Shown here one piece after another: positions 1 through 6,054 of a DNA stretch of 11,161 nucleotides. Each line of letters opens with the position of its first letter. The first letter of the stretch is position 1. A program made the position numbers and the translations under genes. Location of the stretch: the IMG/VR virus record IMGVR_UViG_2563366906_000002; one strand, 5' to 3'. The DNA is from a virus (taxonomy: Duplodnaviria; Heunggongvirae; Uroviricota; Caudoviricetes). The notes below the pieces were generated by a model, which saw nothing but the letters and a program-made list of their open reading frames with translations, was not told the origin of the DNA and ran no database searches.

Positions 1-74
1 GTGAAATTACCGACAAGAAGGGAAAGGGCCTTCCCGAGAGTGGTAAAGGAGAGGCCCTGGAAATACCCCACAGC

Positions 75-137
75 CCCGAAAAAGAGCCAGTCAGTTGCTT
101 AACTGACTGGCATTACCCCTTAGGGGGTGATTTTTTT
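75..137. terminator. Terminator-like hairpin cluster at the backbone/cargo boundary, possibly bidirectional
   Basis: Perfect inverted repeat CCAGTCAGTT-gctt-AACTGACTGG (87-110, extendable to an 11-bp stem 86-111). On the minus strand it is followed by a U-rich tract (complement of CCGAAAAAGAG, 75-85). A second short stem CCCC-tta-GGGG (116-126) is followed by T7 (131-137) on the plus strand. Confidence 0.4.
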
Positions 138-304
138 ACATGACTTTTGATTAGCTGACATTGTAAATCCGCATGTATCAGATGCATTGTTTTGCATGTG
201 GAAATGGGTGTTTTCACTGCCAGCTATCGCTACATGTAGCAAAAACACGGGCTTAATAAGAAATCATTCTGCCATAAGGCATAACTTCCCCGCGTGCTCA
301 GGTA

Positions 305-334
305 TTGACGTCATAGATATGGATCTTTTTTAAT
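305..334 (+). promoter_or_regulatory. Candidate sigma70-type promoter for the TIR-domain gene
   Basis: TTGACG (305-310) with TTTAAT (329-334) after an 18-nt spacer. The fit is weak because an AAGG ribosome-binding site (335-338) sits immediately downstream. By-eye assignment only. Confidence 0.2.
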
Positions 335-348
335 CAAGGTATGGTATT

Positions 349-1296
349 ATGAAGATATTTATTAGTTGGTCAGGTCAGGACAGCCTGGAGATAGCAAAAG
401 TATTACGGGATTGGATACCGAATGTTATTCAAGTAGCTGAGCCGTACGTATCAGCGGAAGATATTGATAAAGGCACTCGCTGGGCGACTGATATATCAAA
501 GGAACTTGATGACTCTTCTTATGGGATTATTTGCCTTACAAAAAATAATATTAATGCACCGTGGATAAATTTTGAGGCGGGTGCTTTAGGTAAAAAGGTT
601 GATAAGAGCCGGGTTAGTCCTTTCTTGTTTAAAATTAAACCATCTGAGATAACAGGCCCAATATTACAATTCCAGTATACTCGTTCGGATGATAAGAACG
701 ATATTTTGAAGTTGATGTTGTCAATAAATAATCAAGCAGGATTTTTGACTGAAGAACGCTTAACTAAAGCTTTCGAGCAATGGTGGCCAAGTTTAGAGCG
801 TGAGTTAGATAACATTCAAGATATTAACCCTGTAGATAAAGATTCCACTAAAAAAACAAAAGGTGATTCGACTTCTGAGATACAAAATCTTTCCAAAATT
901 GTTGAAAGTTTGCTGGATATTAGCCGAACAAATCACCAATTATTGCGTGATCCAGCATCATTATTGCCAGAAGAATATGTTAGCAAAATAATAAACAGGG
1001 AAGGGCGTAAAGAAACTGTTTTAAAAATTGTAGCTTCTGATTTATTATCCATGCATCATTCACTAATTCGTGTAAAAAGAAGATTTATTCGCCGTGGTAT
1101 TGATGAAACATCTAGGAGCGAGTTAATTGAATCATTAAATAAAATGATAATGGATTGTTCTAGAGTAATCGCTCACTTAGATAATTATTGTGGGGTTTCA
1201 TCAAACAATATGTTCAATAGTGCGCTTAGATTGCGGACCAGAAATTTAATTGACATGATGGATGAGGAGGATGCAGAACGGGATGAAATGGAATAA
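349..1296 (+). CDS. TIR-domain protein (about 130-aa N-terminal TIR-like domain plus about 185-aa predicted helical, charged C-terminal domain of unknown function)
   Basis: 315-aa ORF with ATG at 349 and AAGG 10 nt upstream. The N-terminus MKIFISWSGQDS...AKVLRDWI...GTRW...YGIICLTKNNINAPWINFEAG follows the bacterial TIR pattern: hydrophobic-FIS-aromatic-S start, then a W-x3-E motif with the putative catalytic Glu at residue 76 (nt 574-576). The C-terminal half matches nothing I recognise. AT-rich codon usage differs from the P2 backbone. Confidence 0.75.
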   Translation: MKIFISWSGQDSLEIAKVLRDWIPNVIQVAEPYVSAEDIDKGTRWATDISKELDDSSYGIICLTKNNINAPWINFEAGALGKKVDKSRVSPFLFKIKPSEITGPILQFQYTRSDDKNDILKLMLSINNQAGFLTEERLTKAFEQWWPSLERELDNIQDINPVDKDSTKKTKGDSTSEIQNLSKIVESLLDISRTNHQLLRDPASLLPEEYVSKIINREGRKETVLKIVASDLLSMHHSLIRVKRRFIRRGIDETSRSELIESLNKMIMDCSRVIAHLDNYCGVSSNNMFNSALRLRTRNLIDMMDEEDAERDEME

Positions 1297-1347
1297 TCAA
1301 TTTTGACTAATCATAAATAATTTTGCATATATAAACTTATAATGCCG

Positions 1348-1370
1348 CAGCCGCTATTTTTCAGCGGCTG
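1348..1370 (+). terminator. Hairpin downstream of the TIR gene, possible weak intrinsic terminator
   Basis: CAGCCGCT (1348-1355), 7-nt loop, AGCGGCTG (1363-1370), 52 nt after the stop codon. The 3' flank TATATCGTTTATAAT is only moderately U-rich, so termination efficiency is uncertain. Confidence 0.3.
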
Positions 1371-1858
1371 TATATCGTTTATAATGGGTATGTTATTTTT
1401 TATTTTGATAAAATCATTAAAATTGTCGATGTTATATGAATGCACATGTATTATTAATGTTAGAAGATTATGCCTGCTTACGGCTATTGTGCTGAATTCA
1501 ACTATGAACGCATCAGTATTAAAATCGTTCCATGAAATGTTCTTCGTCTACAGCAGATGATGGGCAACGAAAAAATGACGCTGAGTGAGTTGGTCGGGGA
1601 GAATTGTTAGAGGTATTTATGGAGTGGTTTAATAATATCGGTCAATCCTGAGTTGCAGCATCACATAGACGATAGGGAATCTCTCCAGTCGTTCTGGAAT
1701 GGCAGCGTTGAACAACAAGCACAGCGAGGCGTTAGATGCCCATCAGATTGACACAGAGGGTTTATGAATCGCTGGGATTTACTTAGTTTGAAAAATAATA
1801 TATTTATATGTTTTTGTATTGTGTTTGTTAAGGAGTTTGGATTGAAAAGAAAACTGAT

Positions 1859-2047
1859 TTGTGTTATGGCTTTTTGGGGGCGTTGCTGGCTGGTTGTAAT
1901 GAGAGTAATAAAAAAGAAGTTGAGGGTTGTATTGAAAGAGGTGTCCAATATTTTATAGAGATTGGTTCTTACCCTAAATTAAGTGATGGGCGTGATGCTG
2001 TGAAAGTTGCTACTGAACGTTGTAATAGAACAATAACGGCTTTCTGA
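1859..2047 (+). CDS. Small putative lipoprotein (lipobox LLAGC, mature part about 50 aa with three Cys); start codon uncertain
   Basis: The frame contains ...GFLGALLAGC|NESNKKEVEGCIERGVQYFIEIGSYPKLSDGRDAVKVATERCNRTITAF. Its stop (2045-2047) is 2 nt before the ATG of the next gene, indicating translational coupling. In-frame starts are non-canonical: ATT at 1841 (5 nt after an AAGGAG Shine-Dalgarno at 1830-1835) or TTG at 1859. The adjacent frame starting TTG 1842 encodes a textbook n-region MKRKLICVMAF and would join this frame via a 1-nt change in the T5G5 run at 1871-1880. Confidence 0.45.
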   Translation: MCYGFLGALLAGCNESNKKEVEGCIERGVQYFIEIGSYPKLSDGRDAVKVATERCNRTITAF

Positions 2048-2049
2048 TA

Positions 2050-2967
2050 ATGGATTATACGAGCTATATAATAGGACAGCTTCAGGTTGAGGATATTATT
2101 GATGCAATTAAAGGCGTTAATAATACTAATGTCATAAAAGATTATGTGCTGCCTGTAGTATTACCAATTATATCTTCTGTGCTGAGTTACTTTATTGCAA
2201 CTAGGTTGTTTTATCGGCAGGAGTACCTTAAAGCACAAAGAAGAAAGGTAAGCGTTGTAAATAAATGTATTTATGACTACTTTTCTGCAATGACAACGTT
2301 GTTGCAAATTAAAGGGAATTATTATGGTGGGGTAAGTATAAGTGAAAATCCTATCGAGAGGGCTTTAGCTTTTCCTGTTGTGGTTTTTTCTGGTGCTCCT
2401 CTATCATCAGATTTAAGTGAGTTTGCCTGTATATTGAGTCAAAAGGGAGTAGGGAATAATAGAGAGACAGCAAAGACTACTAACTGGGGGGATGCTTTTG
2501 CTGTTAGTGATATAGCAAGAAGGTTTAACAGCCTATTGGCTGCATTAAATGTTAGGAATGATTTTGATGACACCTATAGAGGAATGATTATTGAATCAAC
2601 AGGTTCACCTTTGCCTACGATGCGTTTTAAAAATGATGATATTGTTAATGCTATAGGTAGTAATAAGGCAGCTTATTACATTGATATTACTGAGCAAATA
2701 ATGATTATGATAGATGTTTTGTTGCTTGATATTAATCTGTTGCTCAAAGAGTTGCCATTGTATGCTGAATCGCTGTTTGACAAAAGAGTAATGCAAGAAG
2801 ATTCAGGGATTCTTAAATTCAATGATTTGCACGAACGTTTTCCTCTACTTATGAAACCTGTAACGCCACCTTCGATTAAACTCATGTCTGATTATTTGGG
2901 GTACAGTGAAGATGAGATCTTACGACGCTATCCATACCCGTTCTTTAATATGCATGATTGTGAATGA
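2050..2967 (+). CDS. Hypothetical single-pass membrane protein, 305 aa (N-terminal transmembrane anchor, family unknown)
   Basis: ORF with ATG at 2050 and no own Shine-Dalgarno, coupled to the upstream small ORF. One strongly hydrophobic segment YVLPVVLPIISSVLSYFIATRLFY (residues ~32-55) is followed by basic residues (RQEYLKAQRRK). AT-rich codon usage. No motif I can assign. Confidence 0.7.
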   Translation: MDYTSYIIGQLQVEDIIDAIKGVNNTNVIKDYVLPVVLPIISSVLSYFIATRLFYRQEYLKAQRRKVSVVNKCIYDYFSAMTTLLQIKGNYYGGVSISENPIERALAFPVVVFSGAPLSSDLSEFACILSQKGVGNNRETAKTTNWGDAFAVSDIARRFNSLLAALNVRNDFDDTYRGMIIESTGSPLPTMRFKNDDIVNAIGSNKAAYYIDITEQIMIMIDVLLLDINLLLKELPLYAESLFDKRVMQEDSGILKFNDLHERFPLLMKPVTPPSIKLMSDYLGYSEDEILRRYPYPFFNMHDCE

Positions 2968-3071
2968 ATGTGCATATGTCAGAAGCCGTTTTTATTGTCA
3001 GTTATCGTCAGTGCTGGCGCGCTCTTGGAGTGTTCATGCAACTGCATTAAAACCGCCCCACGAAGCGGGCG

Positions 3072-3090
3072 GGCGAGGCGGGGAAAGCAC
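3072..3090. other. cos: cos cohesive-end sequence of P2-type phages
   Basis: GGCGAGGCGGGGAAAGCAC matches my recollection of the 19-nt P2 cohesive end. It lies ~160 bp beyond the 3' end of the leftward portal gene, as in P2. Recalled, not database-checked. Confidence 0.55.
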
Positions 3091-3220
3091 TGCGCGCTGG
3101 CGGTGGTGATGATTGTCTGAGCGCGTCGTGATGGCGTTTAGATTGTGCGCCGGGGCGTTGGTGTGTCTGCGGGGTGTTTTGTACAGTGGCGAGCGTGTGA
3201 GGGCGTGATGACGGGGGTGT

Positions 3221-3242
3221 AAAAAAGCCGCCCGCAGGCGGC
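3221..3242 (-). terminator. Intrinsic terminator of the P-Q operon
   Basis: On the minus strand, stem GCCGCC-tgcg-GGCGGC followed by T6 (plus strand reads A6 at 3221-3226, then GCCGCC cgca GGCGGC). It begins 5 nt after the Q stop codon. Confidence 0.5.
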
Positions 3243-3247
3243 GATGT

Positions 3248-4282
3248 TCAGCCGTTGTCAGTGTCCAGTGAGTAGTTTTTAAAGCGGATGACCTCCTGAC
3301 CGAGCCAGCCGTTTATTTCCCGAATCCTGTCCTGTAACGGGATAAGTTCATTGCGGACAAAGACCTTTGCCACTTTCTCAATATCGCCCAGCGACCCGAC
3401 GTTTTCCGGCTTGCCACCCATCAACTGAAAGGGGATGCGGTGCGCGTCCAGCAGGTCAGCGGCGCTGGCTTTTTTGATATTAAAAAAATCGTCCTTCGTT
3501 GCCACTTCACTGAGCGGGATAATTTTAATGCCGTCGGCTTTCCCCTGTGGGGCATAGAGAAACAGATTTTTAAAGTTATTGCGGCCTTTCGACTTAACCA
3601 TGTTTTCGCGAAGCATTTCGATATCGTTGCGGTCCTGCACGGCATCGGTGACGTACATGATGTATCCGGCATGTGCGCCGTTTTCGTAATACTTGCGGCG
3701 GAACAGCGTGGCCGACTCATTCAGCCAGGCAGAGTTAAGGGCGCTGAGATATTCCGGCAGGCCGTACAGCTCCTGATTAATATCAGGCTCCAGCAGGTGA
3801 AACACGGAGCCGGGCGCGAAGGCTGTCGGCTCGTTGAAGGACGGCACCCACCAGTAAACATCCTCCTCCACGCCACGACGGGTATATTTGGCCGGTGAGG
3901 TTTCCAGTCTGATGACCTTACCGGTGGTGCTGTAACGCTTTTCCAGAAACGCATTACCGAACACCAGAAAATCCAGCACAAAACGGCTGAAATCCTGCTG
4001 GGAAAGCCACGGGTGCGGGATAAACGTTGAGGCCAGAATATTACGTTTGACGTAAATCGGTGAGCTGTGATGCACGGCAGCACGCAGGCTTTTTGCCAGA
4101 CCGGTAAAGCTGACCGGTGGCTCATACCATCTGCCGTTACTGATGCACTCGACGTAATCCAGAATATCACGGCGGTCGAGTACCGGCACCGGCTCACCAA
4201 AGGTGAATGCCTCCATTTTCGGGGCGCTGGCAGTCATTGTTTTCACCGCTGGCTGCGGTGTTTTCCCTTTTTTCTTACTCAT
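3248..4282 (-). CDS. Q: Portal protein (P2 gpQ-like)
   Basis: 344-aa ORF starting MSKKKGKTPQPAVKTM..., recognised as P2 portal protein Q, with the same length as P2 Q. Its ATG overlaps the stop of the upstream terminase gene (ATGA). Confidence 0.95.
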   Translation of the reverse strand: MSKKKGKTPQPAVKTMTASAPKMEAFTFGEPVPVLDRRDILDYVECISNGRWYEPPVSFTGLAKSLRAAVHHSSPIYVKRNILASTFIPHPWLSQQDFSRFVLDFLVFGNAFLEKRYSTTGKVIRLETSPAKYTRRGVEEDVYWWVPSFNEPTAFAPGSVFHLLEPDINQELYGLPEYLSALNSAWLNESATLFRRKYYENGAHAGYIMYVTDAVQDRNDIEMLRENMVKSKGRNNFKNLFLYAPQGKADGIKIIPLSEVATKDDFFNIKKASAADLLDAHRIPFQLMGGKPENVGSLGDIEKVAKVFVRNELIPLQDRIREINGWLGQEVIRFKNYSLDTDNG

Positions 4283-6054
4283 CAGTAAAACTCCAGAATG
4301 GTGGATGTCAGCGGAGTGCTGATACCGGCGGTGAGTGGCTCATTTAACAGGGCGTGCATGGTCGCCCAGGCGAGGTCGGCGTGGCTGGCTTCCTCGCTGC
4401 GGCTGGCCTCATAGGTGGCGCTGCGTCCGCTGCTGGTCATGGTCTTGCGGATAGCCATAAACGAGCTGGTGATGTCGGTGGCGCTGACGTCATATTCCAG
4501 ACAGCCACGACGGATAACGTCTTTTGCCTTGAGCACCATTGCGGTTTTCATTTCCGGCGTGTAGCGGATGTCGCGTGCGGCGGGATAGAACGAGCGCACG
4601 AGCTGGAACACGCCGACACCGAGGCCGGTGGCATCAATACCGATGTATTCGACGTTGTATTTTTCGGTGAGTTTGCGGATGGATTCAGCCTGGGTGGCAA
4701 AGTCCATGCCTTTCCACTGGTGACGCTCAAGTATTCTGAATTTGCCACCGGCCACCACCGGCGGTGCCAGTACCACGCATCCGGCGCTGTCGCCACGGTG
4801 TGACGGGTCGTAACCAATCCATACCGGGCGGGAGCCGAACGGATTGGCGGCAAACGGCGCATAGTCTTCCCATTCTTCCAGCGTGTCGACCATGCAGCGT
4901 TGCAGCTCCTCGAACGGGAACACCGACGCCTTGTCGTCAACAAATTCACACATGAACAGGTTTTTAAAATCGTCGGCGCTGTTTTCGCGTTTGAGCTGCT
5001 CAATGTCGAACAGCGTGCAGCCACCTTTCAGGGCGTCCTCAATGGTGACAATCTGCCGCCACTGGCCGTCCGCACAGAGAAGCCCTCCGGCAAGGGCGTT
5101 ATGACTGACGTCGATTTCCACGCGTTCGGCGGCGCTGGCGCGTCCCCGGTTGAACAGTTCACCTGACCAGAACGGGTAGGCGTCGTGCGCCAGCGTGGAC
5201 GGGGTGGAGAAATAGGTCGAACGCAGGTGACTCTGTGAGGCCATACCTGATGCCACCTTACGCAGTACCTGAAAATTCGGGATCCAGAAAATCTCGTCGA
5301 CGTACAGGTCGCCGTTATGGCTCTGTGCGGTGTTGGAGTTGGTGCCGAGAAAAATCAGTTTTGCGCCGTTATTGCCCAGGACAATCGGGTCACCGGTCAG
5401 GTCAACGTCAACCAGACGGGCAAAGGCGATGATGTATTCGCGGAACACATACGCCTGCGTTTTACTGGCCGACAGAAAAATCTGGTTATGACCGGTTTTC
5501 AGGGCACGCAGCAGCGCCTCGCGGGAAAAATAAAACGTTGCGCCAATCTGGCGGGATTTCAGGATATCGCGGATGCGGTGCTCAAGCCCGGCGCGATACC
5601 AGTGCAACTGATAGTCGAAAGACTGCTCAAAGAAAATCTGCTCCAGCTTTTCGATGGCTTCGTCGCTGAAAAAATTCTTTTTCGGTTTGCGCCGCCCGCC
5701 TTTGTTGCGGTTAGCGATGTTCGGATTAAGGTCTGCCTCGTTGCCGGTCTGACTGTAGCGGTTGACCCGTGCCAGTCGTTCAATCTGGCGTCCCAGCAGG
5801 TCAATTTCCTTGAAGTCACCGCCGGTTTTCTGCGGTTTGATGATGAGCTGGGTCAGCCGCGCTTCCAGACTCATTTCGACACGGCTGATGGGGGCAACGC
5901 TGTCCCAGCCGTCGCGCTGTTTCCAGCTCTGCACCGTCGGGCGTTTCATCTGCAACATGGCGGCAATCTGCGGCACGGAAAACCCCTGCCAGTACAGCAG
6001 CGCCGCCTGACGACGCGGGTCGTGTAAAAGAGTGGTGTCTGTGGTGATGGTCAT
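4282..6054 (-). CDS. P: Terminase large (ATPase) subunit (P2 gpP-like)
   Basis: ORF-track entry 4282-6084 begins at a TTG. The ATG at 6052-6054 (protein MTITTDTTLLHDPRRQ...) is preceded by GGCGAGG and gives 590 aa, the P2 gpP length. Large-terminase-like content; sits upstream of and coupled to Q. Confidence 0.93.
   Translation of the reverse strand: MTITTDTTLLHDPRRQAALLYWQGFSVPQIAAMLQMKRPTVQSWKQRDGWDSVAPISRVEMSLEARLTQLIIKPQKTGGDFKEIDLLGRQIERLARVNRYSQTGNEADLNPNIANRNKGGRRKPKKNFFSDEAIEKLEQIFFEQSFDYQLHWYRAGLEHRIRDILKSRQIGATFYFSREALLRALKTGHNQIFLSASKTQAYVFREYIIAFARLVDVDLTGDPIVLGNNGAKLIFLGTNSNTAQSHNGDLYVDEIFWIPNFQVLRKVASGMASQSHLRSTYFSTPSTLAHDAYPFWSGELFNRGRASAAERVEIDVSHNALAGGLLCADGQWRQIVTIEDALKGGCTLFDIEQLKRENSADDFKNLFMCEFVDDKASVFPFEELQRCMVDTLEEWEDYAPFAANPFGSRPVWIGYDPSHRGDSAGCVVLAPPVVAGGKFRILERHQWKGMDFATQAESIRKLTEKYNVEYIGIDATGLGVGVFQLVRSFYPAARDIRYTPEMKTAMVLKAKDVIRRGCLEYDVSATDITSSFMAIRKTMTSSGRSATYEASRSEEASHADLAWATMHALLNEPLTAGISTPLTSTILEFY

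Follow-up and report, generated by a model that had tools for sequence, protein, structure and literature searches.

The TIR gene of the phage AC1 defence locus is probably an autonomous single-gene module beside independent 2TM+1TM and lipoprotein modules

The TIR gene at positions 349 to 1296 (plus strand) of the window, by which we mean the whole 11,161-nucleotide stretch of caudoviral DNA analysed here (IMG/VR record IMGVR_UViG_2563366906_000002), is a component of a published, validated and catalogued defence locus, that of the P2-like phage AC1. Within this locus the gene probably encodes an autonomous, separately transcribed defence protein, with a self-contained NAD+-cleaving mechanism of abortive infection that we infer, and it would stand beside two independent modules, a 2TM+1TM gene pair and a pair formed by a small lipoprotein gene and a gene for a 305-aa protein. 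A more detailed version of this reading, on which we are evenly divided, holds that the name "2TM-1TM-TIR" conflates modules. On this view the TIR protein, with more than 1,500 relatives in the Proteobacteria and beyond, would suffice by itself as an abortive-infection NADase, phage would be sensed by its hypervariable three-helix unit, a sensor of a new kind that the helix carrying the invariant E186, L189, R193 and L199 would couple to the TIR domain, and the 2TM+1TM pair would be a separate prophage exclusion module. No discovery claim is needed for the TIR gene, because the identical protein is already part of a validated and catalogued locus; the useful result is a correction to the catalogue entry.

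Positions 115-3071 of the window agree with Escherichia phage P2_AC1 at 99.9% identity, and the ORF is intact (ATG at 349, TAA at 1294-1296), encoding 315 aa that are 100% identical to protein 3 of clone pFD240. That clone is given as "2TM + 1TM + TIR" in Table S2A of Rousset et al. (2022, PMC9122126), with a 125-aa 2TM protein, a 185-aa 1TM protein and the TIR protein. In the same work phage AC1 was isolated and its lysogen was found to resist lambda and LF82_P8; the cloned locus, with all three genes together, protects against lambda, LF82_P8 and P2, and on a plasmid it gave protection in E. coli C (Rousset et al. 2022, PMC9122126). The reverse cloning primer of that study has an exact match, GAGATTCCCTATCGTCTATGTGATG, at 1659-1683 on the minus strand; the validated clone ends here, and the genes further downstream are therefore outside it. 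In PADLOC, model PDLC03016 ("TIR-TM") matches residues 1-295 with E=2.7e-118, and the catalogue covers the locus with models named TIR-TM, 1TM-TIR and 2TM-TIR. In DefenseFinder the AC1 system bears the name Rst_2TM_1TM_TIR. The gene is rare in E. coli, being found in 14 of 5,426 complete genomes, all at 99.7% identity or above. An earlier note on this DNA, made from the letters alone, had put the gene forward as a candidate single-gene defence protein. As a new candidate it does not stand, having been published by Rousset et al. (2022) and entered in PADLOC; the defence role itself is supported at the level of the three-gene clone, because the identical protein sits in that protective clone.

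The N-terminal domain, residues 1-155 (349-813, plus strand), has the TIR (flavodoxin-like) fold. Pfam TIR_2 matches residues 3-113 with E=7.5e-10 and 39.8 bits against a cut-off of 28, the AF2 model built from 64 homologues is confident over residues 1-155 (pLDDT about 85-94), and mean identity to the window protein among these homologues is 69% in this domain. When the model was compared with the PDB by Foldseek, the best matches were nearly all TIR structures (SPARTA TIR-APAZ, PdTIR, TLR1/2, BtpA, AbTir and BtTir), with probability about 1.0 and weak E-values (2e-3 to 1e-2). Positions 562-582 translate to WINFEAG, and E76, the putative catalytic glutamate of the αC WxxxE motif (W72-I-N-F-E76, 562-576, plus strand), is therefore encoded by codon 574-576. 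Residues W72, F75, E76, A77 and G78 are invariant across the 64 homologues, and in the family profile W72INFE76 falls on the DWTNYEL segment of AbTir, the alignment being marginal (E=0.27); this segment is the WxxxE motif of AbTir, whose glutamate, E208, is catalytic and required for NADase activity. The TIR assignment of the earlier note thus holds in both the profile search and the structure search, and its placing of W72-x3-E76 at the catalytic position agrees with the invariance of the motif and its alignment with AbTir. AbTir and BtTir, which share the TIR fold and the motif, also carry a helical non-TIR region; they differ from the protein described here in having that region at the N-terminus and in producing cADPR isomers, a role in phage defence is not established for them, and the similarity is of the marginal kind just given.

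The gene lies inside a 3-kb island of about 35% GC, which adjoins P2-type portal, terminase, scaffold and capsid genes of 55-60% GC, and its position is the cos-proximal gpA-gpQ hotspot of a P2-like prophage. The right end of an IS4-family insertion element occupies positions 1-115 (plus strand), of which 1-114 matches, at 100% identity, the IS4 (insG) copies of about 2,600 E. coli genomes. What precedes it can be read in assembly GCA_000350985.1 (locus L029), with which the window is identical over 7,296 bases: the gene order there is gpA, 2TM, 1TM, IS4, TIR, and the element spans 4257-5767 (about 1.5 kb) between the 1TM and TIR genes. Because IS4 separates these two genes, the window holds the TIR gene only; the adjacent 2TM and 1TM genes are absent from it, as it starts inside IS4, and are present upstream of IS4 in L029. 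In locus L001 they occupy 3043-3417 (2TM) and 3438-3995 (1TM), both upstream of the TIR gene, and these AC1-type orthologues match PDLC02978 and PDLC02977, the PADLOC 2TM-TIR / 1TM-TIR models. Compared with the published "2TM + 1TM + TIR" locus (PMC9122126), the copy studied here has the same TIR sequence at the same gpA-gpQ cos-proximal hotspot, with 2TM and 1TM genes likewise in L029, and differs in the IS4 element between 1TM and TIR.

The insertion point of IS4 is inside the hairpin of an intrinsic terminator. In intact islands this terminator stands directly past the 1TM stop codon, its hairpin being AAATCACCCC-TTAG-GGGGTGATTTTTTT at 3569-3596 of locus L022. The 12-bp target-site duplication of the element, CCCCTTAGGGGG, is at 116-127 of the window (plus strand) and at 4245-4256 of L029, and the 3' half of the terminator with its T-run is retained after the duplication at 116-138 (plus strand; the terminator scan lists 112-131), while the TIR ORF was left intact. 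The untranslated region upstream of the TIR gene, 139-348 (plus strand), is 99-100% conserved in all AC1-type islands, and the gene's own promoter is presumed to lie there; a scan with the sigma-70 consensus gave no plus-strand match of 9/12 or better within it, and no convincing promoter at 116-348. On the other side, a terminator-like hairpin with a 9-bp stem and a weak T-tail is located at 1347-1371 (plus strand), 50 nt past the TIR stop codon. An Rfam search of the window returned no match, and NCBIfam has no model matching any of the proteins.

Homologues of the TIR protein number more than 1,500, with lengths of about 280-320 aa, and come from Enterobacterales, Burkholderia, Massilia, Vibrio and beyond, including Dehalococcoidia and Pirellulaceae. 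A scan of genome contigs with the TIR protein as the single query gave only 4 distant loci; for the 1TM protein there are 49 homologues, the named ones being from Enterobacterales except one. We fetched 67 loci, added that of phage mEp390 afterwards, and searched them by tblastn with all five proteins of the island (2TM, 1TM, TIR, lipoprotein and 305 aa); the loci compared are those that the searches returned, that is, a sample and not an exhaustive census. The AC1-type TIR loci contained all five genes in 16 of 16 cases, always with the TM pair adjacent. Around divergent TIR genes (35-74% identity, about 40 loci) tblastn detected no 2TM, 1TM, lipoprotein or 305-aa gene within 5 kb in any locus. 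Divergent 2TM+1TM pairs (42-81% identity, four lineages; loci L059-L067) were adjacent to each other and without a TIR gene in 9 of 9 loci, which belong to lambdoid prophages of Klebsiella aerogenes and K. pneumoniae and to P2-like prophages of E. coli and Proteus. In lambdoid prophages the TIR-less pairs lie past the lysis genes or in the interval from Q to the holin gene.

Where TIR homologues stand alone, the flanking gaps measure 69-675 bp, too short for both TM genes, and such settings were seen in P2-like prophages of Klebsiella (in which gpA and the portal gene have the TIR gene alone between them), on a Serratia chromosome, at an Enterobacteriaceae prophage edge, and in Burkholderia and Massilia. 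In lambdoid phage mEp390 a homologue of 272 aa stands alone between Q and the holin gene; it is encoded on the opposite strand and has an annotated terminator of its own. After clustering of the flanking ORFs, the recurrent neighbours of TIR genes were phage core genes only (HNH, terminase, integrase, portal and CI), and no recurrent neighbour outside the phage core was detected for the divergent TIR genes. Homologues occupy phage accessory-gene positions and are also found beside OLD-like and SIR2 genes. This distribution and the terminators point to an AC1 island made of three independent accessory modules side by side, in which the TIR gene is a separate transcription unit and the 2TM+1TM pair an independent two-gene prophage accessory module; the catalogued three-gene definition probably merges them. 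The "single-gene" part of the earlier note is favoured by the independent distribution, the intervening terminator and the stand-alone homologues; it contradicts the three-gene catalogue entry, and the adjacency of the TM pair in every AC1-type locus counts against it.

Two loci deserve separate mention. In L024 (GCA_006239165.1) the five-gene block (2TM, 1TM, TIR, lipoprotein and 305 aa) is found in a context free of P2 genes, beside a SIR2_2 gene, which suggests that the block has moved between elements as a unit. In Vibrio fluvialis (L017, 6004-7927) genes for proteins of 368, 36 and 219 aa without Pfam match lie downstream of the TIR homologue and in the same orientation.

Rousset et al. 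(2022, PMC9122126) proposed Thoeris-like signalling by the three genes, in which the TIR protein senses infection and makes an NAD+-derived messenger, upon which the adjacent 2TM and 1TM proteins kill the cell. We consider this unlikely, although it is the hypothesis of the authors themselves for a phenotype obtained with the three-gene clone, and PADLOC has models for all three proteins. A parallel is offered by type II Thoeris, which pairs a TIR protein with a Macro-domain effector. The Macro-domain effector of type II Thoeris is also transmembrane. The adjacency of the three genes in 16 of 16 AC1-type loci likewise favours the proposal, and cooperation may therefore occur in the AC1 lineage; however, among the loci sampled divergent TIR genes were always without the TM genes, and divergent TM pairs always without a TIR gene. 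The 1TM and TIR genes are divided by an intrinsic terminator, a nucleotide-binding domain could be recognised in neither TM protein, and in the source genome IS4 parts the genes by 1.5 kb with the TIR ORF still intact. Thoeris proper (the TIR protein ThsB with ThsA) resembles the present case as a bacterial TIR protein in anti-phage immunity and differs in its effector: domain and family searches found no SIR2, SLOG or Macro gene in the window, and no ThsA-type effector (SIR2-SLOG or Macro) was among the neighbours of the homologues sampled, so that the absence of such a partner, remarked upon in the earlier note, extends to the family as sampled.

It is also conceivable, but improbable in our judgement, that the 2TM+1TM pair is what produces the phenotype of the AC1 clone (for example by exclusion at the membrane level) without a contribution of the TIR protein, which might then act on different phages or serve some other purpose, such as the interference with host TLR signalling proposed for TcpC and BtpA. 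The published phenotype does belong to the three-gene clone as a whole (PMC9122126), and the 2TM+1TM pair is widespread as an accessory module of its own in lambdoid and P2-like prophages. An idle TIR protein is hard to reconcile with a strongly conserved TIR domain, a catalytic motif invariant in 64 sequences and a family of such size, and also with the occurrence of homologues at phage accessory-gene positions and beside OLD-like and SIR2 genes; a role specific to animal hosts is disfavoured because homologues occur in environmental Burkholderia, Massilia, Vibrio, Dehalococcoidia and Pirellulaceae. In E. coli, 64 TIR clusters were compiled and 32 systems tested by Wang (2024, PMC11350192), and mutation of conserved TIR active-site residues abolished defence in all 12 of the systems validated there. 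That the TIR protein signals to an unlinked effector, encoded at another place in the host or prophage, would account for the lack of a recognisable effector domain beyond TIR, and is in our view very improbable: the cloned locus worked on a plasmid in E. coli C (PMC9122126), the homologues are spread over very different hosts without a shared neighbour, and TIR domains can themselves be NAD+-depleting effectors.

Beyond the TIR domain the protein consists of three parts of unequal conservation. Residues 156-185 (814-903, plus strand) form a variable linker of low confidence, with pLDDT below 50 at 163-173 and 24% identity to the window protein. They are followed by a conserved helix-turn motif, residues 186-210 (904-978, plus strand; 63% identity, entropy 0.98), in which E186, L189, R193 and L199 are invariant and N195, R200, P202, P207 and Y210 are at least 90% conserved. 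The remainder, residues 211-315 (979-1293, plus strand), is a fast-evolving helical C-terminus with 16% identity to the window protein in the variable helices (211-285) and 8% in the disordered acidic tail (286-315). AF2 modelling of the C-terminal part alone gave long helices at 173-200, 208-249 and 253-280 with pLDDT about 90, and then the disordered tail. The region has no Pfam match, Foldseek of the C-terminal unit against the PDB gave no fold match with E<1 (the nearest being designed helical bundles), and a profile search of PDB sequences returned designed bundles only. In an exhaustive phmmer search of 1.84 billion representatives 8 proteins were retrieved, namely family members, fragments and 1-2 unrelated repeat proteins. 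A transmembrane segment is absent from this part (the maximum Kyte-Doolittle mean over 19 residues is 1.04). The C-terminal region is thus a family-specific three-helix unit without sequence or fold relatives and, for lack of any specific match, not a detectable portable domain, which sharpens the description of an unassigned helical C-terminus in the earlier note by the structure prediction and Foldseek comparison it had proposed.

A conserved stem with a variable tip is the pattern that would be expected of a coupling helix on a fast-evolving recognition surface, and we infer a sensor function because the C-terminus is only 8-16% identical to the window protein among homologues, as against 69% in the TIR domain; the variability could instead reflect relaxed constraint and not an arms race. 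In the mechanism that we propose, the N-terminal domain would act as an NAD+ glycohydrolase, with E76 of the WxxxE motif as its catalytic residue, and in the uninfected cell the protein would be inactive as a monomer or small oligomer. On infection the fast-evolving three-helix unit would bind a phage component, and the conserved helix 186-210 may couple this binding to TIR-TIR assembly and thereby to opening of the active site; cleavage of NAD+ would then arrest the infected cell and abort the infection. No other protein of the locus would be needed. There are precedents for such triggering: single-protein TIR systems of E. coli respond to portal or tail-fibre proteins (Wang 2024, PMC11350192), and the NADase SpbK, itself the product of one gene, becomes active when it directly binds a portal protein (PMC11984713).

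SpbK of the Bacillus subtilis element ICEBs1 (PMC11984713) is the pattern for our working model: its NADase aborts infection after direct binding to a phage protein. It is a single gene on a mobile element and encodes a small two-part protein, in which a non-TIR region and a linker are joined to a TIR domain with a catalytic glutamate, and the stand-alone genomic contexts of the TIR homologues fit this single-gene type. The arrangement is different in that the sensor of SpbK is N-terminal and its TIR domain C-terminal, and no sequence relationship outside the TIR fold was detected. The systems of Wang (2024, PMC11350192) are similar as single-gene TIR defences of E. coli; they are described as having "only a short TIR domain", unlike the TIR domain with attached C-terminal unit described here.

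Should the TIR gene be independent of the 2TM+1TM pair, any tool that demands the full set of three genes will overlook nearly every member of a TIR family that is mostly stand-alone, and will also credit the family with a mechanism by membrane effectors that perhaps does not exist. In that case the family would offer a compact model, a single gene of 315 aa, for the control of a TIR NADase by a minimal helical appendage.

Several ORFs follow the TIR gene in the window. A hydrophobic ORF of 72 aa at 1342-1560 was treated as spurious, as it matched no family and shares sequence with the terminator-like hairpin; it falls inside the cloned fragment of Rousset et al. The ORFs at 1764-2047 and 2050-2967 were considered as the TM partners and ruled out, since the proteins of Table S2A map upstream and the clone ends at 1683. 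Within the first of these, a small lipoprotein gene at 1830-2047 has the Shine-Dalgarno sequence AAGGAG, a TTG start at 1842 and the lipobox LAGC. A run of five G (1876-1880) shifts the reading frame in the window and in AC1, as it does in 12 of 13 loci checked; in E. coli 0-4 the run is six G long and the ORF is intact. Translation of the G5 allele from the TTG start would give a hydrophobic peptide of 38 aa. PHROG 32041 matches residues 27-94 only of the G6 ORF, and the homologue in locus L021 is a clean lipoprotein of 68 aa. The G5 gene could be a pseudogene, be phase-variable, or be read by slippage on T5G5.

The 305-aa protein (2050-2967) has one N-terminal TM helix and belongs to PHROG 21267; Pfam, PADLOC and NCBIfam searches gave no match for it, and it forms only two clusters among 5.8 billion proteins. 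In L021, which has the sole divergent homologue of the 305-aa protein, the lipoprotein and 305-aa genes are found directly after gpA without a TIR gene. The two genes are a separate two-gene module, outside the validated clone of Rousset et al. Immediately past the island, the window has GGCGAGGCGGGGAAAGCAC at 3072-3090, presumably a P2-type cos sequence; the linear P2_AC1 record ends at position 3071 of the window, and 3072-3090 is therefore probably the P2-type cos end. The whole accessory island directly adjoins this putative cos, in the gpA-gpQ hotspot.
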